64,000 nucleotides of DNA from Thermoanaerobaculia bacterium (GCA_035556715.1 DATMER010000050.1:87978-151977), one strand, 5' to 3'. Positions 1 to 25,640 are shown, counted from the first letter of the stretch. Notes: generated by a model from the sequence alone, not told the origin. A program made the numbers and translations.

Positions 1-711
1 GTCTGCCACCAGGCGCTCGACCATTTCGAGGCTCGTCTCGACCCACTGCTCGGCATGGCGGCAGGCGTCCCGGGCCATGACAGGGTACCGCCGCAGGATC
101 TCCAGAGCTGTGTCCGGTTTCTTAAGGAAGGAGACGAAGCTGGCGAACCGCTCCTCGGGAGTGTCTCCCTGAAGCCTTCCTTCGAGACGGCTAGCGTGGA
201 GCTCCAGAGCCAAAGCGCGTTCAGTCGCCCAGCGCAGTCGCGCGAGAAGTGTGGCCAAAAGTCCCGTGGCGACTGCTTCCGGCTCGATTGGGATCGTCGT
301 GATCTGGCGCAATCTCTCGAGTACACAGGCGTGGACGTCGGAGATCAGAGGCCTGAGGAGCTCAAGGATACCGAGCTGGTGACCATCCCCGGAGACGGGC
401 TGCGAAAAGTTCCGCGCCAGCCGCTCAACCCAATCGGGAGGAGCACCTGCCCGGCAATGCAGGACGGAGCAGGGCTCGGCCAGGATACGCGGGAGCCGGT
501 CCACGGTCAGGCCTTCCATGCCGAGACGCTCGGTAAAGAGGGCGTCGTCGAGCAACTCCGACTCGCGTCGCCATCGCTGCACCTTTCTGATGGCGCGCTC
601 CATCCGTTCCAGGGGCGGATTGCCTTCGTCGGACCTCACGAGAGCTGCGCGCTCAGCGACCGTCAGGGCTTCGAGCCAGCCCGGGGCATCTGCGATGTCA
701 TGCATCAGCCA
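1..711 (-). CDS. Class II lanthipeptide synthetase (LanM-like), N-terminal ~237 aa; gene continues beyond the left window edge
   Basis: Hand translation of the minus strand from ATG (RC of cat at 709-711), open to position 1: MHDIADAPGWLEALTVAERAALVRSDEGNPPLERMERAIRKVQRWRRESELLDD...LEGRLQGDTPEERFASFVSFLKKPDTALEILRRYPVMARDACRHAEQWVETSLEMVERLVAD. The segments WLEALTVAER, GDTPEERF and YPVMARD recall N-terminal signatures of LanM dehydratase domains (recognition from memory). Lies 75 bp downstream of a lanthipeptide precursor on the same strand. Not in the ORF track because it is edge-truncated. Confidence 0.55.
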
Positions 712-785
712 GGCGCATCCTCCTGTCCTGAATCAAAAGAGCGGGCGGACCCTGGACCGCCCGCTCCGGAGGCATTCAGTTCGAG

Positions 786-1016
786 TTACGGGCATTGCGT
801 CCCTGGCTGGACGCAGGAACAATCCGGCGTCGAGCAGCATTTGTAGGTTTGGCAGACGTAGGAGCCTGTGCAACCACCCGTAACGCTCCGCAGGATGTCG
901 TCGCTGATCCCCGCTAGGCCAGCAGGATTCTCCGGCAAGCTGGCCCGCTGCTCTGAAGAGAGGCTGTTGCGGTACTCCTCGTCGCGCCAGGCACGGACCA
1001 CGTCGATCTTCCTCAT
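786..1016 (-). CDS. lanA: Class II lanthipeptide precursor peptide (mersacidin / lichenicidin-alpha / haloduracin-alpha type leader, GG cleavage site, Cys/Ser/Thr-rich core)
   Basis: 76 aa: MRKIDVVRAWRDEEYRNSLSSEQRASLPENPAGLAGISDDILRSVTGG | CTGSYVCQTYKCCSTPDCSCVQPGTQCP. The leader aligns with mersacidin MrsA (IIRSWKDPFSRENSTQNPAGNPFSEL...) and lichenicidin Bli-alpha (ILSWKNPMYRTESSYHPAGNILKEL). Double-Gly end. Core has 7 Cys and 7 Ser/Thr in 28 aa. Strong RBS AGGAGG 5 nt upstream of the ATG (RC of 1017-1030). Confidence 0.8.
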   Translation of the reverse strand: MRKIDVVRAWRDEEYRNSLSSEQRASLPENPAGLAGISDDILRSVTGGCTGSYVCQTYKCCSTPDCSCVQPGTQCP

Positions 1017-1111
1017 CGTATCCTCCTCTCGTTGTTATCCTAGACAGCTCGACAGAGCTGCTTAGATAAGCTACTACAGAAGTGCAGGGCGCGGAAGACC
1101 TGATCGTTGTA

Positions 1112-2767
1112 TCAGCGGAGCTCTCCCGCGCGCCACCGACCAAGCACATGGTCCGCCACGCGGAAGCTGTTGGCCAGGATCGTCAGGGTGGGAGCCGCGC
1201 CTCCCGAGGTGGGCATGAAGCTGCCGTCCACCACATAGAGATTGGGGACCTCGTGCGCCCGGCAGTGTTCATCCAGGACCGAGGTGCGGGGATCGCTCCC
1301 CATCCGGCAGGTGCCGTGGACCAAGTAGGCGGAGGTGCCGCCCACGGAGGTCGCCCGCAGGTCTACCGCCCCCAGTCCGTCCAGAATCTCGAAGCCGTGC
1401 TCTAGGAGCCAGCGGCCCGCGATTCGGTGGTGCTCGGGCACGTCCAGATGGATGCGCGCCACCGGCAGACCCCAGCGGTCCTTCACCTCCGGGTCGAGCT
1501 CCACGAACGTCCGGTCGTTGGGCAGGAAGTCGTGGAAGGCCTCGAAGCCGACCGTCCGGTGCTCTTGAAAGTGCTCCCGCAGGCGGCGCTTGAGATCCGC
1601 CCCCCAGGGCACCGGCTCGGACTCACCCATCACCATCTCCGCGGTGGCCAGCGGCACGGTGCCGTCGATGTCGAAGCGCAGCAGTCCCCCTTTGGGGAGA
1701 GCGCTGACCCCTTCGGGGAGGAAGTAGTGGTCCATGAGCGACACACCCAGGAAGGGATGCCAGGCGCTTAGCGGGAGCTCCGGATGATCCCCGATGCGGA
1801 ACCGGCCCTGGCCCATGGTGACGCCGTGGAACTGCAGATGCCTTCCGACCCGGCCGCTGCCGTTCGCCAGACCGTCCGGAAAGCGGGGGGAGCGGGAGAG
1901 CAGCAGCATGCGGGCCGATTCCACGGCCGAGGCGCAGACGAAGACCACCCGCGCCGGTACCTCGTGCTCGCGGCCCTCGCGGTCGAGATAAATACAACCC
2001 GAGGCCCGGCCCTGCCGGTCCACAGTGACCTCCTTCACCATGCACTCCGGACGGACCTCGCAACGCCCGGTGGCCTCGGCGCGGGGAAGCAGGGCCTCGG
2101 CGGTGCTCCCTTTCGCCCCCACCCGGCAGCCGTACCCGGCGCAGGCGCTGCAATAGATGCACGCGGGCCGTCCCTGGTAGGGACGGGAGTTGATCGAGCG
2201 GGGCGTGGGGAAGGGGTGGAGCCCCCGCTTGCGGCAGGCCTCCTCCAGCCAGGGGGCGAGGGGATGGCTGTCGAGCGGCGGCAGGGGGTATGGACCCGAG
2301 CGCGGACCCTCGAAAGGGTTGAGCCCGGCCTGCCCGGCCACACCCACCTCCCGCTCGGCCAGGGTGTAGTACGGCTCCAGCTCTTCGTAGCCGAACGGCC
2401 AATCCGCCAGCTCCTCCACCGGCCCGAAGCGGCTCCGCATGCGGAAGTCGTCGGGATGGAACCGGTAGAGAAAGGCGCCCATGTGGACCGTGCCGCCGCC
2501 GACACAGGTGGCGATCCAGCCCAGCTCGGTGCGGACCGGCCGGGTCGTCTTCGGGGTCACGACGGTGTGAGGCTCGCCGTCCAGGTAGGGGAGGAAGAAG
2601 CGATGCCGCTGGTTCGCCAGCTCGTCGGCCGGGTACTCCTCGGGCCGGTGCCGCGGGCCTTTCTCCAAGACCAGGACGTCGAGGCCCGCCCGGGAGAGAG
2701 CCAGGGCCAGGGGACCTCCCCCTGCGCCGCTGCCGATGATGACCGCGTCGCGGATTCCCGGGGTCAC
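1112..2767 (-). CDS. GMC-family FAD-dependent oxidoreductase (gluconate 2-dehydrogenase flavoprotein-like)
   Basis: 551 aa. N-terminal FAD Rossmann fold VIIGSGAGGGPLALALSRAGLDVLVLEKG. C-terminal GMC signature region (HGTCRMGSDP...VVDGSFMPTSGGAAPTLTI). 4-bp ATGA overlap with the upstream small-subunit gene. Confidence 0.85.
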   Translation of the reverse strand: MTPGIRDAVIIGSGAGGGPLALALSRAGLDVLVLEKGPRHRPEEYPADELANQRHRFFLPYLDGEPHTVVTPKTTRPVRTELGWIATCVGGGTVHMGAFLYRFHPDDFRMRSRFGPVEELADWPFGYEELEPYYTLAEREVGVAGQAGLNPFEGPRSGPYPLPPLDSHPLAPWLEEACRKRGLHPFPTPRSINSRPYQGRPACIYCSACAGYGCRVGAKGSTAEALLPRAEATGRCEVRPECMVKEVTVDRQGRASGCIYLDREGREHEVPARVVFVCASAVESARMLLLSRSPRFPDGLANGSGRVGRHLQFHGVTMGQGRFRIGDHPELPLSAWHPFLGVSLMDHYFLPEGVSALPKGGLLRFDIDGTVPLATAEMVMGESEPVPWGADLKRRLREHFQEHRTVGFEAFHDFLPNDRTFVELDPEVKDRWGLPVARIHLDVPEHHRIAGRWLLEHGFEILDGLGAVDLRATSVGGTSAYLVHGTCRMGSDPRTSVLDEHCRAHEVPNLYVVDGSFMPTSGGAAPTLTILANSFRVADHVLGRWRAGELR

Positions 2768-3195
2768 TCGCCGGTCTTCCCGAGGCAGTGGCCCGTGTGC
2801 ACCTCGGGCACTCCCAGATAGCTCCAGCCCAGGCCGCCGCGGTTGCCGCCGTGGGCCGGATCGCAGAGGAAGCCTTCCAGGGTGAAGGACACGAGCTTGC
2901 GGAAGAAGGCCCGGCGCAGACGGTCCGGCTCCGCCTGGAAGCGGCGCAGGACTTCGTCGCGCTGGTCCGCATCGCAGGAGGGGAAGGGAAGGGCGAAAAG
3001 CTCTTCAGCCAGCTCCTCGAAGCGGCCGAGGCCATCCTCGAAGAGCGGCTGCCAGGAGCGGAAGCCGTCCGTTTCCAGGAGCCGCTCGATGTAGGCCGCC
3101 GCTCCGGTCTCCGCCGCGCCAGGGCCATCATCCGAGGGGAGGATGCGCTCAGCCGCGGCGGCCAGGATCTTCCTCTCCTCGCCGGTCAAAGCCAC
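2764..3195 (-). CDS. Gluconate 2-dehydrogenase subunit 3 family protein (small partner of the GMC oxidoreductase)
   Basis: 143 aa MALTGEERKILAAAAERILPSDDGPGAAETGAAAYIERLL..., typical of the Gluconate_2-dh3 family. Translationally coupled (ATGA) to the GMC gene. Confidence 0.75.
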   Translation of the reverse strand: MALTGEERKILAAAAERILPSDDGPGAAETGAAAYIERLLETDGFRSWQPLFEDGLGRFEELAEELFALPFPSCDADQRDEVLRRFQAEPDRLRRAFFRKLVSFTLEGFLCDPAHGGNRGGLGWSYLGVPEVHTGHCLGKTGE

Positions 3196-3365
3196 GGCGG
3201 TGATTCTACCCGGAATTAAGGGGCGGACCGTGGGGCCCGCCGGGGGAGAGGTCTCAGTAGCATGGACAGGTGGGCAGGGCGTGCAGATGCCGGTCGTGCA
3301 TTGCCCGATGGTCGTGGGGCCGCAGCCGCCGGTGACCGTCTTCAGGATGCATCCTCGAGGAGGCC

Positions 3366-3795
3366 TGACGCGACCGGGGCAATTCTGACGCGACGATGGA
3401 TTCTCCTGACGCGACCCAGCCTATAGTCGCGTCAGCGATAGCTTTCCATGGCGCGACGATAGGCCTGGCTGACGCGATGATAGAATTCTGTGATGCGACT
3501 CAAGACTTGGATGATGCGAAGAAAGATATAGCTGACGCGACGATAGGCTTTGCTGATGCGACTCAAGGCCCAGTCGCGTCACCGAAACCTATAGCCGCAT
3601 CAGCCATCTCTTTCCCTGGAGCGACGAAGGATTCCGCTGGCGCGACGATGGACTGGTCCGCGACGCCGATAGGTTGAGCTGTCGCGACTTGGGCCCAAGT
3701 CGCATCACCGATAGGTTCTGTTGACGCGACTTGAGGCTGAGTCGCGACAGGAAAGGGCTTCTCCTCGCGCGCTGATCCTGTGTCGCGACAACAGG
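3366..3795. repeat. Degenerate ~21-bp tandem repeat array (~20 units; consensus approx CTGACGCGACGATAGGCTTTG), units in both orientations, with embedded perfect palindromes
   Basis: GACGCGAC / GTCGCGTC octamers recur about every 20-22 bp (near 3366, 3386, 3407, 3427, 3453, 3470, 3492, 3512, 3533, 3553, 3572 ... 3783). Perfect palindromes include GCGACTTGGGCCCAAGTCGC (3686-3705) and CTGACGCGAC-N10-GTCGCGTCAG (3405-3436). The 7-aa periodicity in spurious ORF 3396..3677 (ADATIGF/ADATQGP) follows from the 21-bp period. Confidence 0.65.
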
Positions 3796-4049
3796 GTAGT
3801 CCCGCCGCGCGCTGAAAGGTCTGGGGCTGGGCCCCATGTGTGGTGTTGCGGCAGACAAACCCTTTGGCGTGGAGCGGAGTTTCTGTACGCGTCAGGAAGC
3901 AGAGCACTACGGGTGCTGTCCTGCACCTGTACGAACGCGCTGGCGACCTCAAGTACGGCGAACTCGAGGTCGGCCAGGAGACTGTGGTCTTCGACTGATA
4001 GAATCGGGTGGAAGCTCACAAACCCTGGTTTAGCTGAAAGGGGCTCATC

Positions 4050-4607
4050 ATGTTGAATCGCATCGCGGTTCTGGCTTTGGCGTGTTTTGTCTGGGCAGGC
4101 GCTCTCCAGGCGCAGGAGGCCGGCAGCGCAAGCGGTAAGGGGACGATGGAGCGGATCGTCGATCCGAGGACCGGCCAGAGCGAGCAGGTGACGTTCCAGC
4201 CGCGTCATTCGTTCGCCTATTCCGGGACCGTGGCTGGAATGAAGTTCACCTGGCTCGTCCTCACCGACAAGGAGCCCCCGTTGAAGACCTGGGCGGCGGC
4301 AAAGGACCGCGCCGAGGCGCAGCGGCTCTGGTGCGGGACGGAAAAGGCGTCCTTCGTCTCCGTGCAGTTGGATAAGGACTGGAAGGTCTATGCCTACTAC
4401 CTGTGTCCTGCAAACGGCGCCGTGAGCACCCAGATGCTGAGCACCTTTAACGGGCTCGACAGCGTCGTCCTCGATTTCGAGGTCCGCGATGCGAAGAAGC
4501 TGAAGGGCACCCTGCGCACCGGCGACGGCGCCTGTGGGAACGACGAAGAAATGACCTACTGCACGCCGACAGGCGACTACACCTTCGATGCCCCTCTCGT
4601 GAAATGA
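4050..4607 (+). CDS. Hypothetical secreted protein (N-terminal signal peptide)
   Basis: 185 aa with N-terminal hydrophobic signal MLNRIAVLALACFVWAGALQA. RBS GAAAGGGG upstream. Locally lower GC and plausible codon usage. No recognised family. Confidence 0.55.
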   Translation: MLNRIAVLALACFVWAGALQAQEAGSASGKGTMERIVDPRTGQSEQVTFQPRHSFAYSGTVAGMKFTWLVLTDKEPPLKTWAAAKDRAEAQRLWCGTEKASFVSVQLDKDWKVYAYYLCPANGAVSTQMLSTFNGLDSVVLDFEVRDAKKLKGTLRTGDGACGNDEEMTYCTPTGDYTFDAPLVK

Positions 4608-4632: not shown

Positions 4633-6309
4633 CTACGGTGAGGAAACCGCCGCCCGCACATCCCCCCTCAGGGCGGGGAGGTCGAGCGGCACCACGGGCT
4701 CCTGGGCCAGGGCGGCGGCGAGCTTGGCGTCGTGGCCGTAGACGTCCTTGCGGAAGTGGATGGCTCCGTTGTCTTCCACCCAGGCGGTGAAGTAGAGGAT
4801 GTGCACGGGCAGCTTCTTCGGCAGCTTGATGCTCCGCTGCTCGCCCGAGACGATGGCCTCTCGCAACCGGGTGCCGCGCCAGTCGGGGTTGTCCCGGAGC
4901 AGGTACTCGGCGAGCTGCACCGGCCGCTCCAGGCGGACGCAGCCGTGGCTGAAGTCCCGCTCTTCCCGGGAGAAGAGGTGGTCGGCGGGGGAGTCGTGCA
5001 GGTAGACGTCGTGCTCGTTCGGGAACATGAACTTGACCTGGCCGAGCGGGTTGTCCGGGCCGGGGCGCTGGCGGATCCGCTGACTGCCGCCGCTGCTCAC
5101 GAATTCCATGTTGTTGCGCGCCATGTAGCCGGGATCGCTCGCCTGCTTGGGGAGGATCTCCTCCTCGGCGATGCTGGTGGGGATGTTCCACGCCGGGTTC
5201 AGCTCCAGGTACTCCATCTGGTCGCTGAACACAGGTGTCTGGCTCTGCTGCTTGCCCACGACCACGGCCATGTCGAGCGCCTTGCGGCCCCCGTCGATCA
5301 GCTCCATCCGGTACTCGGGGACGTTGACCCAGATGTAGCTGTCGCCCAAGCTGTTCGGCAGCCAGCGCCAGCGCTCCAGGTTGAGCTCGATCTGGCGGAT
5401 GCGGTCCTGCACCGGCACGTTGAGCTCGGCCAGGGTGCCTTCGCCGAGCTTGCCGTCGGGGTCCAGGCCGTGGCGCTGCTGGAAGCGGGCGATCGCCTGG
5501 GCCACGGCGTCGTCGAAGACGGGCGGGGGAGCGGGTTGGCCCTCCTCAGCCGGAGGGACGGCGAGGTCCCCTTCCGCGGCGAGCCGGTTGCGCAGCGCGA
5601 GCACTCCCGCTCCCCGGGCTCCCATCTCGAGGCCCGCGGGCACGGAGGGCCAGCCGCCCTTGGCCGCGATCTCGCGATATCGGGCGAGGGCGTCCCGCAG
5701 CCGGGCATAGCGGGGATTGGGCGGAGCCAGGCTCCGGAGGCTCTCCATGACCGCCCCGTCCTTGTCCTGCAGGGTCGTCTCCAGGCGGGCATCCAGGTCG
5801 ACGTTGCGCGACTGGTCCTCCCAGTGGACGCGGAGCGTCTCGGGCTGCACCCGGCCGATGGCCGTGTGGGCCGCCAGGGTCAGGTAGACGAAGGTCAGCT
5901 CGACGTCGAGGTCGGCAAGCCGGCGCTGAGCCTCCGGCGATTCGAGCGACTCCTGCTCCTTCACCTGGCTGAGCAGGCCCGCGAGCCGGGTGCTGTGATA
6001 GCGGCGCGGGTCGAGCCCTTCGGCGGTGGTGATGGAGCCGAGGGTCTCGACGAGCTGCTCGGCGTGAGGCCGGGGGCCGCCCACTTCCGACCAGGCGGGC
6101 TGGTACTGGCGCTTCTGGTAGAACCGGCGCATCTCGTCCCAGGCGCGCGCCCGCTCCTTCTGCTCCTTGATGGAGACAGGCAGGGTCTCGGATTCCACGG
6201 TGGAGCGGATGATCTGCGCCACCTGGGGCGGCATGATCTTCTCGCGGCACCCGGTAAGAAGGAAAACCCCGGCGAGAACTAGGGAGAGGGGCAGAATTCG
6301 CAATTTCAT
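4633..6309 (-). CDS. L,D-transpeptidase family lipoprotein (YcbB/LdtD-like, peptidoglycan-binding plus YkuD catalytic domain)
   Basis: Catalytic motif region HDSPADHLFSREERDFSHGCVRL (YkuD His/Cys). Lipoprotein signal MKLRILPLSLVLAGVFLLTGC. ORF 4633..6426 trimmed to the internal ATG at 6309, which precedes the signal peptide. Confidence 0.8.
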   Translation of the reverse strand: MKLRILPLSLVLAGVFLLTGCREKIMPPQVAQIIRSTVESETLPVSIKEQKERARAWDEMRRFYQKRQYQPAWSEVGGPRPHAEQLVETLGSITTAEGLDPRRYHSTRLAGLLSQVKEQESLESPEAQRRLADLDVELTFVYLTLAAHTAIGRVQPETLRVHWEDQSRNVDLDARLETTLQDKDGAVMESLRSLAPPNPRYARLRDALARYREIAAKGGWPSVPAGLEMGARGAGVLALRNRLAAEGDLAVPPAEEGQPAPPPVFDDAVAQAIARFQQRHGLDPDGKLGEGTLAELNVPVQDRIRQIELNLERWRWLPNSLGDSYIWVNVPEYRMELIDGGRKALDMAVVVGKQQSQTPVFSDQMEYLELNPAWNIPTSIAEEEILPKQASDPGYMARNNMEFVSSGGSQRIRQRPGPDNPLGQVKFMFPNEHDVYLHDSPADHLFSREERDFSHGCVRLERPVQLAEYLLRDNPDWRGTRLREAIVSGEQRSIKLPKKLPVHILYFTAWVEDNGAIHFRKDVYGHDAKLAAALAQEPVVPLDLPALRGDVRAAVSSP

Positions 6310-6356
6310 CTCGATTCCTCGTCCGGCTGTGGGGGCACCCGCTCGGGGGCGGCCGG

Positions 6357-9044
6357 TCACTTCAACCCCACAGCCTTCTTCATGGCCGCCGTGATCGACT
6401 GATGCTCTTTCAAGAAGTCTGCCCACGGGTCGGCTTCGAGGCTCTCGAGCCTTTCAGGGAGGTTCCGGACGGTGTAGGTGTTGGCCCGCACATCGGTTTC
6501 CAGCTCTTCCCAGAAGAGGGGGGTGGAGACCGGCGCTCCGGGGCGGGCGCGGGTGGAGTAGGCCGCGATGGAGGTGGCGCCACGGCCGTTGCGCAGGTAG
6601 TCGATGAAGATCTTGCCCTTGCGGCTGGCCTTGGGGAGCTTGGAGGTGTAGCGGGTCGGTTCTTCGGCCACGATGCTCTCGACCACGGCCTTGGTGAAGG
6701 CCTTGACCTCGTCCCACTCTCCGCGCCGGGTGATGGGCATGCAGACGTGGAGCCCCTTGCCGCCGGTGGTCTTGAGGAAGGTGCGCAATCCGAGCCCCTC
6801 CAGCCGCTCGCGCACCTTGAGGGTCCCCTCCACCACCCGCTCCCAGGAGAGGCCTTCGTCGGGGTCGAGGTCGAAGACGATGTAGTCGGGCTTCTCGATC
6901 GCGTCCACGTGCGAGCCCCAGATGTGGAGCTCCAGCACGCCCATCTGCACCAGGGAGATCAGGCCGGTCGGCGAGTCCAAGGCGCCATAGGGGACGGCGC
7001 CGCCGCCCTCTTCCACCTGGACTCTCTTGATAGAGGAGGGAAACTGTTCGTTGACGTGCTTCTGGTAGAAGCACTGCTTCCCCTGCCCCGAGGGGCAGCG
7101 CACCAGGGTCAGCGGCCGGTTTTCGAGATGGGGGAGGATCCAGGCCTGGATCCGCTCGTAGAAGAGGGCCAGCTCGCGCTTGGTGAGCCCCTGCTCGGGA
7201 TAGAGGACCCGGTCGGGGTTGGTGATCTTGACCCCGGCGATCTCGGTGATGTCCCCGGGGTCCTTCGCGGGCCCGAGAGGAGGGATGTCCCCTTTCTTTG
7301 CCTTCTTGGATGCGGGCTTCTTCACGGCCTTCTTCGCAGTCTTGGCAGTCTTCGCCGCAAGCGTCCGCGGGGCAGAGGCCTTCTTCTCTGCTTTCTCGAT
7401 CTTTTCGGTGGGCTGTTCGACCTCCCGCACCACCTCGTCCGGGCTCTTGTCCTCGCGCAGCCCCTGGAACGTAGGATGGCGGAGGATGCCGTCCTCGGTC
7501 CACTCGGTGAAGGCGACTTCGGCCACCAGCTTGGGCTCGACCCAGTGGCTGCGCCGGGCCTCGGCGCCCCGGGGAGCCTTCTTGAAGGCCGGGGTCTTGC
7601 GCTCCAGCTTGGCTAGCCGCTTGCGCAGGTCGACCAGGGTGCGGGTATTGAACCCGGTTCCGACCTTGCCGGCGAAGACCAGCTCGCCGCCTTCGTTGAC
7701 GGCGAGGAGGAGAGCGCCGAACCCGGTGCGGGAGCCTTCGGGATCGGTGAAGCCCACGATCACCATCTCCTGCCGCTTGAGGCACTTGACCTTGAGCCAG
7801 TCCTTGCTGCGGCCGGACTGGTAGGGGAGGTCGGCCCGCTTGGAGATCATCCCCTCCAGGGCGTAGCTGCAGGCGTGGCGATAGAACTCGTCCCCGGCCC
7901 CGAGGACGTGGTCGCTGAAGCGGATCGTGCCCTCGGCCGGCTGGTTCGCCAGAAGAGCCGAGAGCGCCTCCTTCCTCTGCAGGAGCGGGACCGGGCGGAT
8001 GTCGTAGCCATCCAGGTGGAGGAGGTCGAAGGCGAAGAAGACGAGGTTCTCCCCTCCTTCGCCGAGCGCGTTCTGCAGGGCCTGGAAGCTGGTGGTCCCA
8101 TTGGGCAGGAGGACCGCGGCCTCGCCGTCGAGGAGCGCCTCTTTCGCCGGAAGAGCCGCGATGGCCTCGGCAATGGGGCCGAAGCGGTCGGTCCAGTCCT
8201 TGCCGTTGCGGGTGATGATGCGGACCTTCCCATCCTTGAGCTCGCAGAGGACCCGGTAGCCATCGAACTTGAGCTCGTGAACCCACTCCGTGCCGCGGGG
8301 AGGGTCCGAGACCAGGGTGGCGAGCTGGGGCGCGGCCTTCGCCGGAAGCTTCGCCTTGCGAGCTCCGGGCAGGGTCGAGAGATCAAAAGCAGATGGCTTG
8401 GGGGCAGCCTTCTTCGCGGCCGGCTTCTTCTTGGTGGAGACCTTCTCCTCGCGGTTCGACTGCCAGACGCGGTCGGGGTTGGCGGCGATCTCCTCCAGGG
8501 TCAGGCCGGTGGTGACGCTCGCCGAGTACTCCTGGACGACGGCATCCCCGCTGCCCGGCACGGCAAACTCGTCGTTGTCCTTGAACAGGAGCCAGTTCTC
8601 CTTGTCCTCGCCCGCTCTGTCACCGTGCAGGCGCACTAGGTGCCAGCCGCCGTGGAGCTTCTCGCCTTCGAGGCGGAACTTGATATGGCCCTTGCGGTAG
8701 GCCTTGACCGGATCGCCTTCAGGATCCCAGGTACCGCGGTCCCAGAGCAGGACAGTGCCGCCGCCGTACTGCCCCTTGGGGATGATTCCCTCGAAGCCGC
8801 CGTAGTCGAGTGGGTGGTCCTCGACGTGGACCGCCAACCGCTTCTCGCCGGGGTCGAGGCTCGGACCCTTGGGCACGGCCCAGGAGCGGAGGACCCCCTC
8901 CATCTCCAGGCGAAAGTCGTAGTGGAGACGGGTGGCCGCGTGCTTCTGGATGACGAACGAGTTGCCTTTGGCGGCGGCGACCTTGCCCGCGGGCTCGGGG
9001 GTCTTCTTGAAGTCGCGCTTGCGCTTGTATTCCTGGAGTGCCAT
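6357..9044 (-). CDS. ligD: Multidomain NHEJ DNA ligase D (phosphoesterase - ATP-dependent ligase - polymerase/primase)
   Basis: 895 aa. N-terminal LigD 3'-phosphoesterase domain (FVIQKHAATRLHYDFRLE). Ligase KxDG adenylation motif (HELKFDGYR). C-terminal LigD polymerase domain. Immediately downstream of ku. Confidence 0.9.
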   Translation of the reverse strand: MALQEYKRKRDFKKTPEPAGKVAAAKGNSFVIQKHAATRLHYDFRLEMEGVLRSWAVPKGPSLDPGEKRLAVHVEDHPLDYGGFEGIIPKGQYGGGTVLLWDRGTWDPEGDPVKAYRKGHIKFRLEGEKLHGGWHLVRLHGDRAGEDKENWLLFKDNDEFAVPGSGDAVVQEYSASVTTGLTLEEIAANPDRVWQSNREEKVSTKKKPAAKKAAPKPSAFDLSTLPGARKAKLPAKAAPQLATLVSDPPRGTEWVHELKFDGYRVLCELKDGKVRIITRNGKDWTDRFGPIAEAIAALPAKEALLDGEAAVLLPNGTTSFQALQNALGEGGENLVFFAFDLLHLDGYDIRPVPLLQRKEALSALLANQPAEGTIRFSDHVLGAGDEFYRHACSYALEGMISKRADLPYQSGRSKDWLKVKCLKRQEMVIVGFTDPEGSRTGFGALLLAVNEGGELVFAGKVGTGFNTRTLVDLRKRLAKLERKTPAFKKAPRGAEARRSHWVEPKLVAEVAFTEWTEDGILRHPTFQGLREDKSPDEVVREVEQPTEKIEKAEKKASAPRTLAAKTAKTAKKAVKKPASKKAKKGDIPPLGPAKDPGDITEIAGVKITNPDRVLYPEQGLTKRELALFYERIQAWILPHLENRPLTLVRCPSGQGKQCFYQKHVNEQFPSSIKRVQVEEGGGAVPYGALDSPTGLISLVQMGVLELHIWGSHVDAIEKPDYIVFDLDPDEGLSWERVVEGTLKVRERLEGLGLRTFLKTTGGKGLHVCMPITRRGEWDEVKAFTKAVVESIVAEEPTRYTSKLPKASRKGKIFIDYLRNGRGATSIAAYSTRARPGAPVSTPLFWEELETDVRANTYTVRNLPERLESLEADPWADFLKEHQSITAAMKKAVGLK

Positions 9045-9050
9045 GGGAGA

Positions 9051-9956
9051 TCAGGCGCTCTTCTTGGCCGGACGCCTGGAAGCGGTCTTCCTCGCCGCCT
9101 TCCTGGCCGCCTTCTTGGCCGGCTTGCGGGCAGTCTTCTTGGCCGCGGATTTCTTCGCTCCTCCCGGACGCTCCTCGACGCTCCTCTTGAGCAGGGCCAT
9201 GAGGTCCACGACCTGGCCACGCTCCGGCTTTTTCGCCTCGGGCGGCGCCTCGGGCGACTCTTCGAGCTGTCCGGCCTCGACCCGCTCCTTGATCAGCTTC
9301 TTGAGGTCCTTGTAGTAGTCGTCGCGGTACTTCTCGGGGTCCCAATCGGAGACCATGCCTTCGACCAGGCGCTCGGCCATGTCGAGCTCCCGCTCCGAGA
9401 CCCCCTCCTTGCCCGAGGGGAGGTCGAGCTCTTTCGGGTCCCGCAGCTCGTGGGCGAAGCGGAGGATGTTGAGCACGATCACCTCGTCCTGGGCCATGAC
9501 CGCGGCCAGGTACTGCTTGGTGCGGATCACCACCTTGGAGATGCCGACCTTCTTGGTGCGGCGCAGGGTCTCGCGCAGGAGGGCGTAGCTCTTGGCCCCC
9601 CTCTTGTCCGGGGCCAGGTAGTAGGGCTTGTCGAAGAAGACCGGACCGATCTCTTCGGCGTCGACGAAATCGAGAATGTCGACGGTCTGGGTCTTCTCGG
9701 GGCTGGCGCGCTGGAGGTCCTCGTCGGAGAGCACGACGTGCTTGCCCCCCTCGATCTCATAGCCGCGGACGGTCTCGTCCCAGGGCACCTCCCGGCCGGT
9801 CTCCTCGTTGACGCGCTTGTACTTGACCCGCGCCATGTTCCGCCGGTCCAGCAGGTGGAAGCTCACGGTCTCCTCCCGTTTCTCCGCCGAGTAGAGCCCC
9901 ACAGGGATGTTGACGAGGCCGAACGTGATGCTCCCTTTCCAGATCGATCGCGCCAT
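9051..9956 (-). CDS. ku: Ku protein (non-homologous end joining)
   Basis: Start trimmed to MARSIWKGSITFGLVNIPVGLYSA (ATG = RC of 9954-9956), the canonical bacterial Ku N-terminus. Lys/Ala-rich C-terminal tail. The upstream 82 codons of the listed ORF are a spurious extension. Confidence 0.9.
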   Translation of the reverse strand: MARSIWKGSITFGLVNIPVGLYSAEKREETVSFHLLDRRNMARVKYKRVNEETGREVPWDETVRGYEIEGGKHVVLSDEDLQRASPEKTQTVDILDFVDAEEIGPVFFDKPYYLAPDKRGAKSYALLRETLRRTKKVGISKVVIRTKQYLAAVMAQDEVIVLNILRFAHELRDPKELDLPSGKEGVSERELDMAERLVEGMVSDWDPEKYRDDYYKDLKKLIKERVEAGQLEESPEAPPEAKKPERGQVVDLMALLKRSVEERPGGAKKSAAKKTARKPAKKAARKAARKTASRRPAKKSA

Positions 9957-10041
9957 ATAACCTCCGGGTGGCCGGGGAACGCAAGATGTATGCCGATTGG
10001 AGATGATTCCGCTCCACGTCCTCCTGTGAGAATCTAGGCGC

Positions 10042-10884
10042 ATGCCGCCGCAGCCCAGGACAGGAAAGACAGGGACCGAGGTCTGGAGGTTCGAGCGGGG
10101 CCGGGGCGAGGCCCGCCCCGACAACGTCGCCACCGAGGAACCGCTGGAGATCCGCCTCCTCTGGGAGGGGGGAGAGCGCACGGTCGCGGTGACCATGCGC
10201 ACCCCGGGAAACGACGAGGAGCTGGCCGCGGGCTTCCTCTACGCCGAAGGGGTGGTGGACCGGCGCGAGCGCATCCTCGCCCTCCGCCACGTGACCGACT
10301 CCGGGGAGACGGAGCCCAATATCATCGAAGTCGAGCTGGGGGAGGGGCCGGACCCCAACCTGCCCACCCTGGAGCGGCATTTCTTCTCCAACAGCTCGTG
10401 CGGAGTCTGCGGCAAGGCCGGGCTGGCCGCGCTCCAGCTTCGCGTCACGAGCGGTGCAGGCCGCCTGCCGCCGGGGCCGGAGGTAGCTCCCGAGATCCTC
10501 TCCTCCCTGCCGGACCGGCTCCGCGAGGCCCAGGGGATCTTCGAGGCGACCGGCGGGCTCCACGCCGCGGCGCTTTTCGACACTTCCGGCGGGCTGCTCG
10601 CCCTGCGCGAGGACGTGGGTCGGCACAACGCCCTGGACAAGCTCTTCGGCTGGGCCTTCCTCCAGGGGCTCCTCCCCCTCCACGACCACCTGGTGCTGGT
10701 CAGCGGCCGGTCCAGCTACGAGATCCTCCAGAAGTGCCTGGTGGCGGGGGTCCCGATCCTCTGCGCGGTGTCCGCGCCGAGCAGTCTCGCCGTCGAGCTG
10801 GCCACCCGCTTCGGCATCACTCTGGTCGGTTTTCTCCGCGGCGACCGCTTCAACGTCTACAGCGGGATCGAGCGGATCTCGTAA
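10042..10884 (+). CDS. fdhD: Formate dehydrogenase accessory sulfurtransferase FdhD
   Basis: 280 aa with FdhD signatures SCGVCG and GRHNALDK. Divergent from ku. Confidence 0.85.
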   Translation: MPPQPRTGKTGTEVWRFERGRGEARPDNVATEEPLEIRLLWEGGERTVAVTMRTPGNDEELAAGFLYAEGVVDRRERILALRHVTDSGETEPNIIEVELGEGPDPNLPTLERHFFSNSSCGVCGKAGLAALQLRVTSGAGRLPPGPEVAPEILSSLPDRLREAQGIFEATGGLHAAALFDTSGGLLALREDVGRHNALDKLFGWAFLQGLLPLHDHLVLVSGRSSYEILQKCLVAGVPILCAVSAPSSLAVELATRFGITLVGFLRGDRFNVYSGIERIS

Positions 10885-11020
10885 ATCTTGCAAGCCCGGA
10901 CCGGGCCGTCCCCTGGAGAGCATCCGTGGCATGGAAGCTGCAATTTCACCGGGTGTGCTCGCCTCCAAAGCGGGCGCAGCCGAGACAGGCCTCAAGGGGC
11001 TTTCGCGGCCCTCCCTGAAC

Positions 11021-11069
11021 GGGGGAGGCGTCCTGATTCGAAACGATCAGTGCGTCTCCCCTCTTTTTC
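11021..11069 (+). terminator. Putative rho-independent terminator downstream of fdhD
   Basis: GGGGGAGGCGTCCTGATTCG-AAA-CGATCAGTGCGTCTCCCC hairpin followed by TCTTTTT. Confidence 0.4.
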
Positions 11070-11092
11070 GAATCTCCAAACGGGAGCCGACC

Positions 11093-11683
11093 ATGAAGAC
11101 GAAGACCTTTCCTCTAGCGTTGGCACTCTGGCTGGTCCTCACGGGCGGCCTTTTGACCGGATGCGATCGCGACGGGCGCGAGGCGGTGGATGCGGAGCGC
11201 GACGCGCAGGGAAACACCGAGATCCACATCGACGGCGATGAGGTCGAGCGCGAGCTCGACCAGGCGGGGGAGCGGGTGGAGCGCGGGCTCGACCAGGCCG
11301 GCGAGCAGCTCGAGCAGGCCGGGGACCAGGTGGCGAAGGGGGCGGAGCAGTTCGCGGAGGGCGCCGAGCAGGTCGGCGCCGCCATCGAGCGCGGGGCCGC
11401 GCAGGTCGAAAAGCAGGTCGGTCCGATCCTGGACGACGCGAGCATCACCGCCCGGGTCAAGGCCAAGCTGATCGCGGACCCCGAGATCAACTCCTTCCAC
11501 ATCGACGTGGACACCGTGGACGGCCGCGTGGCCCTCAACGGCAAGGTCTCCTCGGCCGAGCAGCGCGCCGAGGCCGAGGACCTGGCCCGCGGCACCCAGG
11601 GCGTGCGGCAGGTCGTGAACCTGATCCAGATCGCGGGCCAGGACGTGCCGCTGCAGGTGCCTCCCGCGGGATCGTCCCAGTAA
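11093..11683 (+). CDS. BON-domain lipoprotein (OsmY-like)
   Basis: Start trimmed to MKTKTFPLALALWLVLTGGLLTGC (lipobox). RBS GGGAG upstream of the ATG at 11093. C-terminal BON domain (FHIDVDTVDGRVALNGKVSSAEQRAEAEDLARGTQGVRQVVNLIQI). Confidence 0.75.
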   Translation: MKTKTFPLALALWLVLTGGLLTGCDRDGREAVDAERDAQGNTEIHIDGDEVERELDQAGERVERGLDQAGEQLEQAGDQVAKGAEQFAEGAEQVGAAIERGAAQVEKQVGPILDDASITARVKAKLIADPEINSFHIDVDTVDGRVALNGKVSSAEQRAEAEDLARGTQGVRQVVNLIQIAGQDVPLQVPPAGSSQ

Positions 11684-24717: not shown

Positions 24718-24866
24718 ATCATTCATCTGCTGAAGGATAGCTCTCGTTCCCCGGGAGGGGCGGGAAGGATGATCGCATGTCCCGCGTTGGGGTCTGTGGG
24801 GCACCCGGAGATGTGAGGGTGCGTGGCGGGCGCAGGCCGGGTTTTGCGCAGAGTGGGGGCAAAGGG

Positions 24867-24902
24867 AACATCGGTCGGAGTATCGGTCGAAACATCGGGC
24901 CG
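24867..24902 (+). promoter_or_regulatory. Three contiguous 12-bp direct repeats (AACATCGGTCGG / AGTATCGGTCGA / AACATCGGGCCG), 40 bp upstream of the first gene of the NRPS-PKS operon; candidate regulator-binding site
   Basis: Perfectly phased 12-bp tandem units seen directly in the sequence. Position is immediately 5' of the RBS and ATG at 24942. Confidence 0.3.
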
Positions 24903-24941
24903 GTTTGCCGCTCGCCCGACCTCCAACGGAAAGGAGAGGCA

Positions 24942-25640
24942 ATGCAGGATATTACCGAGAGACTCGAGGAGAACCCGCTCCGCAAGGAGCTGATCCATCA
25001 TCCATTCTTCAAGGAGGTCCGTACCTCCGACCTCACCCGCGAGCAGGTCGGCGTGTTCCTGGGCCAGTGGTGGCATCCGCTGCACTACTTCCCGAACTTC
25101 CTGTCCCGCACCATCGACCAGGTGCCGGTGCTGGAGATGAAGACGGCGATCTGTAAGATCCTCTACCAGGAGCTCGGCGAGGGAGACCCGTCCCGAGCAC
25201 ATGAGCGTATGTACATCTCCACCATGAACGATGCGGGCTTCGACCGCGCCACCGTGGCCGAGGCGGCGCCTTTCGAGGAGACCCGCCGGCTGGTTCAGCG
25301 CTACGAGGAGGCCTCGGCCCAGCGCCTGAGCGCGCTCGGCTTCGTCTATGGCACCGAGGTGGCGGACCTCGCCATGGTGGCCGGGATCGGCAACGCCGTC
25401 CGCCGGGTCTCCCGGCTGGAGAACCTGCCCTGGGTGGACATCCACATCCTGCAGGAGCCGGATCACGTGGATCAGGCCAACGAGGCCCTGGAGGCCGGAT
25501 TCACGCCCGAGGAGGTGGAGACGATCGTGGCCAGCGCCGAGGAGATGTGGACCCTCTGGATCGCCTTCTTCAACCGCCTGCGCCAAGTGATGTTCGGAGA
25601 GGTCCCCGTGGAGGCCGAAGAGGTCCCCGTCACCGTGTGA
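24942..25640 (+). CDS. Heme-oxygenase-like fold, iron-containing redox enzyme family protein (HDO / Haem_oxygenas_2-like)
   Basis: 233 aa from MQDITERLEENPLRKELIHHPFFKEV (perfect RBS AAGGAGAGG). Helical protein with ELIHHPFF...LTREQVGVFLGQWWHPLHYFPNFLSR and E/H-containing helices typical of this family (recognition from memory). Confidence 0.6.
   Translation: MQDITERLEENPLRKELIHHPFFKEVRTSDLTREQVGVFLGQWWHPLHYFPNFLSRTIDQVPVLEMKTAICKILYQELGEGDPSRAHERMYISTMNDAGFDRATVAEAAPFEETRRLVQRYEEASAQRLSALGFVYGTEVADLAMVAGIGNAVRRVSRLENLPWVDIHILQEPDHVDQANEALEAGFTPEEVETIVASAEEMWTLWIAFFNRLRQVMFGEVPVEAEEVPVTV

Follow-up and report, generated by a model that had tools for sequence, protein, structure and literature searches.

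In peptides that are made by the ribosome and modified after translation (RiPPs), thiazoles are usually formed by a YcaO cyclodehydratase together with a flavin mononucleotide (FMN) dehydrogenase. An ATP-independent, single-enzyme route was first reported in February 2026 and has two examples: ThaO and TheO, enzymes of the GMC oxidoreductase family encoded in lanthipeptide clusters of Thermoanaerobaculia, convert the Gly-Cys of a GGC motif into a thiazole (PMC13083261, Nature 2026). Here, we describe an operon at positions 1-3195 (minus strand) of a 64,000-nucleotide stretch of Thermoanaerobaculia DNA (GCA_035556715.1, DATMER010000050.1:87978-151977; in the following, the window), which, judged by its sequence, is an uncharacterized member of this tha/the thiazole-lanthipeptide family published in 2026 and an expected homolog of the published system. 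The tha cluster stems from the coral-associated 'Ca. Moanaiibacterium opulentum' MAG48. Its synthetase ThaM introduces two dehydrations and two DL-(methyl)lanthionines, Ser2-Cys16 and Thr6-Cys13, into the precursor ThaA, which has five cysteines and two rings, and ThaO then turns Gly-1/Cys1 into a thiazole with a loss of 20.03 Da, as demonstrated by isotope labelling, a C1A mutant and nuclear magnetic resonance (PMC13083261). ThaO is active only when ThaM is present, and ThaA, with Ser at position +2, is still converted to the thiazole under this requirement (PMC13083261). The second system, the the cluster, was found in a soil metagenome-assembled genome. TheO acts on TheA alone, with a loss of 20.02 Da near the GGC motif, and accepts cores down to eight residues; the exchanges G-1A and G2A in TheA impair the reaction, whereas G-2A does not (PMC13083261). 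TheA together with TheM shows a single dehydration (PMC13083261, Extended Data Fig. 9 legend). It was proposed that the cysteine is oxidized to a thioaldehyde in a reaction dependent on flavin adenine dinucleotide (FAD), after which thioenolization occurs, the carbonyl of the preceding amide is attacked and water is eliminated (PMC13083261), and a later chemistry paper judged the thioaldehyde route to be feasible (PMC13638132). A clear conserved neighborhood architecture was not seen for these enzymes (PMC13083261).

We consider it likely that the window locus is a theB-like/theO-like/lanA/lanM operon orthologous to the and tha, whose product would carry lanthionine rings and a thiazole at the GG-C junction. 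The operon starts with a gene for a TheB-like small subunit of the Gluconate_2-dh3 family (2764-3195, minus strand, 143 amino acids; PF13618, E 5.8e-27), whose stop codon overlaps the start of the following gene by 4 nt (GTGA). This gene (1112-2767, minus) codes for a TheO-like FAD-binding GMC oxidoreductase of 551 amino acids, which matches the Pfam families GMC_oxred_N/C and is the predicted thiazole-forming enzyme. After a spacer of 95 nt (1017-1111), it is followed by lanA (786-1016, minus), which encodes a TheA-like precursor of 76 amino acids, by an RNA stem-loop directly 3' of the lanA stop codon (738-767, minus) and, with a gap of 80 nt to lanA, by the first 235 of the 1061 codons of the class II synthetase gene lanM (1-705, minus). 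All four frames are intact and have good ribosome-binding sites, and one gene pair is translationally coupled. Dehydration, ring closure and thiazole formation in the window peptide are expected by analogy with the characterized homologs. A first-pass annotation of the window had described a class II lanthipeptide locus, which is borne out by family models for both the leader (TIGR03898) and LanM (TIGR03897). It had also called the locus edge-truncated; lanM is indeed cut by the edge of the window, but the gene itself is complete on two other contigs that extend beyond it.

The published the cluster (TheN-TheB-TheO-TheA-TheM) is located on contig DATEIO010000468.1 of GCA_035278895.1 (locus L018). 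The window GMC enzyme shares 85.2% identity over 547 amino acids with the enzyme encoded there and 86.4% with the published TheO sequence, the small subunit is 68% identical to TheB, LanM 68-70% to TheM and LanA 57% to TheA. The GMC pair, which the first-pass annotation had taken for a mere neighbor of the precursor gene, is thus orthologous to TheO/TheB and belongs to the cluster. Both loci have the order theB-theO-theA-theM on one strand, a similar spacer of about 95 nt ahead of the precursor gene, whose sequence is not conserved, the same hairpin behind it, the same leader family, the GGC motif and a core tail S-C-V-x-P-G-x-x-C-P. They differ in that no homolog of the GNAT protein TheN is found in the window or in the sister-strain contig L001, in the core, which has 28 amino acids and 7 cysteines in the window peptide and 34 amino acids and 5 cysteines in TheA, and in the junction, which is GG-C-T-G in the window peptide and GG-C-G-I in TheA, so that substrate handling may differ. 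The tha cluster also combines a class II LanM, a GMC oxidoreductase and a mersacidin-type precursor, and its product contains a thiazole and nested lanthionines. The window lanA is 51% identical to ThaA over the leader, and the junctions GG-C-(S/T)-G are alike, with a dehydratable residue right after Cys1; ThaA reads GG-C-S-G, and its Ser2 is dehydrated. However, ThaO is merely 62.4% identical to the window enzyme (first 399 amino acids of ThaO), thaO lies downstream of thaM, the ThaA core (CSGICTYGGWPTCFCC, 16 amino acids) is unrelated in sequence to the window core, and the tha cluster also encodes regulators as well as an ABC transporter and a C39 peptidase, whereas the window cluster has neither transporter nor protease.

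The precursor is an ATG-initiated open reading frame (ORF), whose sequence is exactly as first stated, preceded by the ribosome-binding site AGGAGG at 1022-1027, 5 nt ahead of the start codon, as the first-pass annotation had it. The leader had been likened to that of mersacidin and lichenicidin; the model search proposed for this claim gave a match of residues 5-48 to NCBIfam TIGR03898 with 69.8 bits (E 1.3e-19, cut-off 23.5), and TheA and ThaA match the same model. A Pfam search of the 76-amino-acid peptide returned no family, the leader model being present in NCBIfam only. Leader residues 1-48 are encoded at 1016-873, the GGC motif at 870-878 and the 28-residue core at 789-872; the junction reads ...SVTGG-CTGS..., with Thr at position +2. 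The core, CTGSYVCQTYKCCSTPDCSCVQPGTQCP, contains seven Cys, three Ser and four Thr. The lipid II-binding motif CTxTxEC, whose absence had been pointed out before, is found neither in the core nor in any aligned relative, and membership in the mersacidin family therefore holds for the leader only. In a protein database search, the peptide has 95 full-length homologs, most with 99-100% query cover and 52-72% identity, which shows that the peptide gene is real. In the alignment of these homologs, the leader is near-invariant and the front half of the core is variable, while a core tail of the form (S/T)-T-x-x-x-S-C-V-x-P-G-x-Q-C-P is common to the window peptide and a Thermoanaerobaculia sub-family. 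The core had been regarded as novel; it does not stand alone, given this shared tail and the fact that the exact peptide already carries a name in NCBI. Likewise, up to seven rings had been considered possible; there are seven cysteines in the core, but this number is a loose upper bound, and homologs stay far below it (two rings in ThaA).

The same type of leader occurs with unrelated cores in Chloroflexota, Myxococcota, Cyanobacteria and others. Some mersacidin-type leaders are fused to odd low-complexity cores (L036 ~9986-10310, L047 ~2442-2850 and L043 ~5124-5430), among them long repeats of the type (S-x)n (for example SYSRSNSRSYSRSQS), SSN units repeated in a row and, in Thermosporothrix hazakensis, His-rich stretches (HHHHHHHRHHRH). 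In comparison with mersacidin, lichenicidin-alpha and haloduracin-alpha, the window system passes the same leader model and has a single LanM-type synthetase, but it lacks CTxTxEC as well as a nearby LanT or LanFEG, has an extra GMC tailoring module and is found in the phylum Acidobacteriota rather than Bacillota. It also lacks a LanD decarboxylase and the peptide ends in Cys-Pro, so that no aminovinyl-cysteine is expected.

The minus-strand frame at the window edge matches the LanM synthetase model TIGR03897 at model positions 2-121 of 932 (E 1.9e-21), and it contains the motifs quoted by the first-pass annotation (WLEALTVAER, GDTPEERF and YPVMARD). The fragment had been given as 237 amino acids from position 711; it is the N-terminal part of LanM, but the start codon is the ATG at 705 (MHDIADAPGWLEALTVAER..., beginning with MHDIA), leaving 235 amino acids within the window. 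The codons from 711 (W and L) precede this ATG, an in-frame TGA lies just upstream, and a second AGGAGG is located at 719-724, 13 nt ahead of the start. A plus-strand ORF (55-846), which does exist, had been dismissed as the antisense shadow of lanM; this stands on the strength of the LanM match on the opposite strand, since codon-position GC does not separate the two frames. An exact-sequence look-up of the LanA peptide retrieved two contigs, L001 and L002, both of which extend leftward past the window edge. Window positions 1-1319 are matched by L002 with 100% identity, and L001 is 99.2% identical to the window over 2256 nt, which corresponds to 19 differences; between the window strain and that of L001, LanA is identical and the GMC protein 99.5% identical. 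The complete LanM on L001 has 1061 amino acids, and the identical protein is encoded on L002. It matches TIGR03897 over model positions 2-932 (886.6 bits, cut-off 304), and its record lists the domains DUF4135 (PF13575) and LANC_like (PF05147). Its C-terminal domain contains WCHG, SLCHG and GHGTAG, which presumably include the zinc ligands of the cyclase, Cys and Cys-His, as in other LanC and LanM proteins; SDRHAGG, VVYKPR, DFHYEN and PIDLE can be read in its N-terminal domain and presumably hold catalytic residues of the dehydratase. The leftward extension that had been suggested thus recovered the rest of lanM; however, lanT or lanFEG does not follow downstream of lanM in L001. Three outcomes that would have spoken against a lanthipeptide locus were looked for, and the locus withstood all of them: the edge frame has a LanM match, it does not end after a few more codons, and the peptide matches a leader family.

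Downstream of lanM, L001 encodes an 80-amino-acid ORF that has no Pfam match, followed by restriction and helicase genes on the opposite strand. The latter (5259-11471), an MmeI-type methyltransferase/restriction enzyme of 1305 amino acids and an SNF2/DEAD helicase of 1134 amino acids, form a defense island. In locus L003 (4142-7353), the closest relative that lacks the GMC pair, lanM is split into parts of 439 and 618 amino acids, by a frameshift or an assembly error; two BlaI/BlaR-like pairs and an ABC transporter of the MacB/FtsX type lie on the flanks of the locus. The third-position GC content of lanA and lanM (window 1-1016, L001 1552-4737) is 0.75-0.78, compared to 0.86-0.88 for the GMC pair. 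A separate origin of the two gene pairs was considered on this ground and set aside; the sign is weak, the difference being less marked in the the cluster and not present in either L016 or L125.

The nearest solved relatives of the window GMC enzyme are sugar dehydrogenases, namely fructose dehydrogenase (FDH; 8xcn_A, E 1.8e-56) and FAD-dependent glucose dehydrogenase (FAD-GDH; 6a2u_B, E 1.7e-54). A stretch C-I-Y-C-S-A-C-A-G-Y-G-C of the window enzyme aligns with the Cys-rich region of the FDH and FAD-GDH large subunits, and the four cysteines of its CxxCxxCxxxxC motif at residues 203-214 (C203, C206, C209 and C214) are invariant in 33 orthologs. In FDH and FAD-GDH, this region binds a 3Fe-4S cluster that takes electrons from FAD, and the small subunit is a hitch-hiker of the twin-arginine translocation (Tat) system, which is disulfide-bonded to the catalytic subunit (PMC9727119). 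Compared with the complexes from Gluconobacter (FDH; 7w2j and 8xcn) and Burkholderia cepacia (FAD-GDH gamma-alpha; 6a2u), the large subunit of the window pair is homologous (E about 1e-55), and its small subunit likewise belongs to the Gluconate_2-dh3 family and has a Cys near the C-terminus; a sequence search of the small subunit against the PDB, with E up to 1, gave no match. In contrast to these complexes, the window pair has the Cys pattern CxxCxxCxxxxC instead of CCx4Cx3C, a putative peptide cysteine instead of a sugar as substrate and a predicted cytoplasmic location. A Tat signal is absent from the small subunit, whose sequence begins with MALTGEERK... when read from the first start codon behind the upstream stop, and a cytochrome c or heme subunit is not encoded in the operon, whose remaining genes are lanA and lanM. 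Since both the Tat signal and the cytochrome subunit are missing, the GMC pair is predicted to be cytoplasmic, which would fit an action on a leader-bearing precursor. By analogy with the sugar dehydrogenases, the GMC enzyme probably binds an iron-sulfur (Fe-S) cluster and forms a cytoplasmic complex with the small subunit. A broader proposal, which we regard as possible and advance only tentatively, is that TheO, ThaO and the window ortholog are cytoplasmic two-subunit FAD/Fe-S dehydrogenases (TheO plus TheB) derived from periplasmic sugar dehydrogenases rather than simple flavin oxidases; the CxxCxxCxxxxC cluster would then drain electrons from FAD, and the small subunit, which can be dispensed with in E. 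coli, would still be of importance in vivo.

The association of the GMC pair with the precursor was followed across 39 loci from GTDB species genomes and 74 from metagenomes, which were searched by tblastn with the window proteins. The pair is located directly upstream of lanA in L007/L008 and L009, and tblastn places it in L010, L018, L016, L009, L029, L052, L057, L065 and L070; it is absent from L003, whose LanM is closest to that of the window (72-74% identity), and from L005. In the reciprocal direction, the GMC protein has 3158 homologs with E <= 1e-100 and more than 120 homolog clusters at identities of at least 61%, six of which, on long contigs, were sampled arbitrarily. Five of these six orthologs (62-74% identity) reside in LanM clusters with differing gene orders: LanM, peptide, small subunit and GMC in L123 and L124; a C39-ABC LanT, small subunit, GMC, LanA(s) and LanM in L125 and L126, where the start of the small-subunit gene overlaps the LanT stop codon; and GMC, LanM and peptide in L128. 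The sixth, L127, lies beside a lasso-peptide-like cluster. Altogether, 15 distinct loci, arranged in at least three gene orders, have GMC orthologs next to LanM/LanA, and a linkage that survives such rearrangement argues for a functional link. The idea that the GMC pair reflects inherited synteny only was favored at first, on account of its absence from about 20 sister loci, among them L003, and was dropped after the reciprocal test and in view of the literature. In the 15 GMC-linked loci, Cys directly follows GG in all 22 mersacidin-leader peptides, whereas GG-C is found in only three of 20 GMC-less sister loci, two of which (L050 and L060) are cut off downstream of lanM. This correlation is explained by the published GMC thiazole chemistry at Gly-Cys (PMC13083261).

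These data bear on a rival explanation, according to which the operon makes a mersacidin-like class II lantibiotic of the ordinary kind and the GMC pair, a sugar or alcohol dehydrogenase unrelated to it, lies upstream by coincidence; GG/C would then be a normal double-glycine cleavage site, and Cys1 would be part of a thioether ring. The mersacidin/lichenicidin leader model and the similarity of the GMC enzyme to sugar dehydrogenases would fit this explanation, as would the sister loci that hold LanA and LanM in the absence of a GMC gene. Moreover, the C-T-x-S at the start of the window core recalls the C-T-x-T of mersacidin. However, the recurrence of GMC orthologs in five of six sampled neighborhoods, the tracking of the GG-C junction with GMC presence in 15 of 15 loci, the missing CTxTxEC and a small subunit that lacks the Tat signal used by periplasmic sugar dehydrogenases all point away from it, and an enzyme that is 85% identical to that of the window has been demonstrated experimentally to form a thiazole. 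We therefore regard an ordinary lantibiotic as very unlikely and retain the thiazole-lanthipeptide assignment.

The genome of the tha cluster contains a further GMC paralog (L127 5738-13650, GCA_977880245.1), which is 55% identical to ThaO and 60% to TheO and has neither a small subunit nor LanM nearby. It lies beside a lasso-peptide-like set consisting of Asn_synthase, Transglut_core3 and PqqD proteins, an ABC transporter and its HlyD-like partner, and a Cys-rich precursor of 40 amino acids (MKTYETPEIFELGDAITETRSCSCKCSDGCCGKKSGGEDE). Judged from this arrangement, the GMC enzyme family may modify lasso peptides or other RiPP classes as well.

From these comparisons, a pathway for the window peptide can be proposed. 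The 76-amino-acid precursor would be bound via its mersacidin-type leader, and LanM would dehydrate some of the Ser and Thr residues of the core and close few (methyl)lanthionine rings; the rings predicted for the conserved core tail involve Thr15 and Ser19 with Cys20 and Cys27. The GMC flavoenzyme would oxidize Cys49 (core Cys1), which would then cyclize onto the carbonyl of Gly48 and lose water, giving a thiazole at GG-C with a net change of -20 Da. Since the window peptide has Thr at +2, like ThaA with its Ser2 and unlike TheA with Gly2, thiazole formation is predicted to depend on LanM, as described for ThaO. The end product would be the same as in the YcaO route, i.e., a thiazole from X-Cys in a leader-bearing peptide; however, the system lacks a YcaO protein, an ATP-binding enzyme and a separate azoline dehydrogenase, and in the GMC route oxidation to the thioaldehyde is proposed to come first and cyclization after. 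The junction of GG and C had been read as a plain border between leader and core. As the characterized homologs make the thiazole from Gly-1 and Cys1, they consume this amide bond; since the carbonyl of Gly-1 and the nitrogen of Cys1 enter the ring, the canonical double-glycine bond would no longer exist in the modified peptide and could not be the site of leader removal. Leader removal and export would have to be encoded elsewhere in the genome. An interim idea, in which an N-terminal Cys and a GMC-made aldehyde form a thiazolidine, was dropped in favor of the published thiazole chemistry.

Alternatively, the GMC pair might belong to the cluster but catalyze another oxidation here, acting on a Ser/Thr hydroxyl group, on surplus cysteines to form a disulfide or on the exported product. 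GMC enzymes typically oxidize alcohols, the seven core cysteines exceed the number of rings formed by the homologs, and the published mechanism needs neither an Fe-S cluster nor a partner subunit; in addition, the window peptide has Thr at +2, while the G2A exchange impaired TheO. On the other hand, the enzyme is 85% identical to TheO and the GG-C is kept, ThaA yields a thiazole with Ser at +2, and the GG-C correlation over 22 peptides marks this very site as the substrate. It is thus very unlikely that a different oxidation takes place, and thiazole formation at Gly48-Cys49 is the reaction to be expected.

Several points nevertheless weigh against the thiazole-lanthipeptide assignment. TheO requires Gly on both sides of the modified Cys, and the window peptide has Thr at +2; given the impairment of TheO by TheA G2A, the TheO-like enzyme may act on this peptide inefficiently, or not until LanM has modified it. 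TheB gave no mass shift in E. coli (PMC13083261), so that a role of the small subunit is putative. The GMC pair is absent from about 20 Thermoanaerobaculia-type sister loci and is therefore dispensable for the peptide family as a whole. A sigma-70 promoter scan of positions 1-4200 found no site, with the restriction that such a scan may not apply to Acidobacteriota. Finally, transporter, protease and immunity genes are found neither in the 64-kb window nor just past lanM in the sister strain, and in their absence the cluster may be incomplete or silent.

This last point leads to the view that the operon is a remnant, in which four intact genes persist but no product is exported, as a dedicated transporter, protease and immunity gene are lacking. 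Neither an ORF with an ABC signature nor a protease-like partner is present in the 64 kb, lanM of the sister strain runs into the 80-amino-acid ORF and the restriction/helicase genes, a promoter-like site was not found, and fuller clusters exist, such as L125 and L126 with a C39-ABC LanT and an HlyD-like gene. However, four intact frames, good ribosome-binding sites and a translationally coupled pair speak against a remnant, as do an identical LanA and a 99.5% identical GMC protein in two strains that differ at 19 of 2256 bases. L016 and L009 have the same minimal layout with no transporter, as does the the cluster (L018), which is functional; a transporter may be located elsewhere in the genome, and the sigma-70 scan may be unsuited to this phylum. 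A silent or incomplete locus hence appears unlikely, and we continue to regard the operon as a probable thiazole-lanthipeptide system.

To the two published examples, the window locus adds a third distinct substrate, which combines a TheO-like enzyme (85% identity) with a ThaA-like junction and an unusually Cys-rich core of 28 amino acids with seven cysteines; this pairing can serve as a natural test of the factors that make the reaction dependent on the synthetase. Three leads go beyond PMC13083261: the tight and specific linkage of the GMC family to precursors with GG-C, which is seen in Acidobacteriota and further afield, the four invariant cysteines, whose motif is homologous to an Fe-S site, usually with the small subunit alongside, and the removal of the canonical leader cleavage bond by the thiazole. 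All three bear on the use of GMC enzymes as biocatalysts. The remaining interest of the locus thus lies in its ThaA-like junction served by a TheO-like enzyme, in the seven-Cys core and in the questions of the Fe-S cluster with its small subunit and of leader cleavage.

Apart from the proteins, an RNA element behind lanA is conserved. The hairpin at 738-767 (minus strand), identified in a terminator scan, has 11 bp with nine G-C pairs, a loop of 8 nt and a following UUUU, and folds with -30.3 kcal/mol (z -3.96). It is present in essentially all loci of the family. An alignment of 29 loci has compensatory double changes at seven of the 11 pairs as well as G-U pairs, which argues for an element acting at the RNA level on the sense strand. 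The hairpin is probably an attenuator or a 3' stabilizer that sets the ratio of lanA to lanM transcript; as most copies lack a U-tract, attenuation or stabilization of the lanA transcript may be more plausible than efficient termination. Within the proposed pathway, it would probably keep the lanA transcript in excess over that of lanM.

The spacer between the GMC gene and lanA holds, besides the ribosome-binding site, the palindrome CAGCTCTGTCGAGCTG at 1045-1060. A small palindrome had been reported between these genes; it is present, though at 1045-1060 and not at 1044-1059, and it is of the kind expected by chance, as 31 palindromes in which arms of 6 bp enclose 4 nt occur in the window, or 222 if loops of 3-8 nt are allowed. 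The orthologous spacers, that of the the cluster among them, do not conserve it, and the fold of the spacer is unremarkable (z -1.6). A different, conserved element occurs within the roughly 80 nt before lanA in L009, L010, L016, L052, L057 and L065, where GCGGAG-GGGGACC-TGCCGC...GTGGTCCC-GCAAC lies ahead of the ribosome-binding site; its GGGACC and GGTCCC, separated by an insert that varies, could base-pair, and a structured 5' untranslated region or an operator is possible. Neither the window nor the the cluster has this element. An Rfam search of positions 1-4300 with E up to 0.1 gave no match.

Upstream of the operon, a non-coding stretch at 3367-3789 carries a cluster of GTCGCG(A/T)C sites (n = 10, no strand assigned). 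Of the 17 matches to this motif in the window, 13 fall within these 420 bp, where about 0.09 would be expected. Tandem-repeat periods of 21 and 42 nt are detected in the stretch, and several of the sites lie within ATCGTCGCGTCAG-like units that are spaced by roughly 21 or 42 nt. The cluster was not found in the related loci; it is possibly an array of regulator-binding sites or a decayed repeat element, and its tie to the operon is unproven.

Further along the window, a few kb from the operon, a pair of genes for LigD (895 amino acids) and Ku (6357-10238, minus strand) encodes a bacterial non-homologous end-joining system. The right part of the window is occupied by a second, unrelated cluster (25687-64000, plus strand), whose giant ORFs encode 6229, 1724, 2570 and over 1699 amino acids. 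Repeated Condensation/AMP-binding/PP-binding modules and one KS-AT-KR-ACP module identify it as a hybrid non-ribosomal peptide synthetase-polyketide synthase cluster, which continues past the right edge; it is preceded by a gene for a heme-oxygenase-like iron enzyme at 24741-25640.

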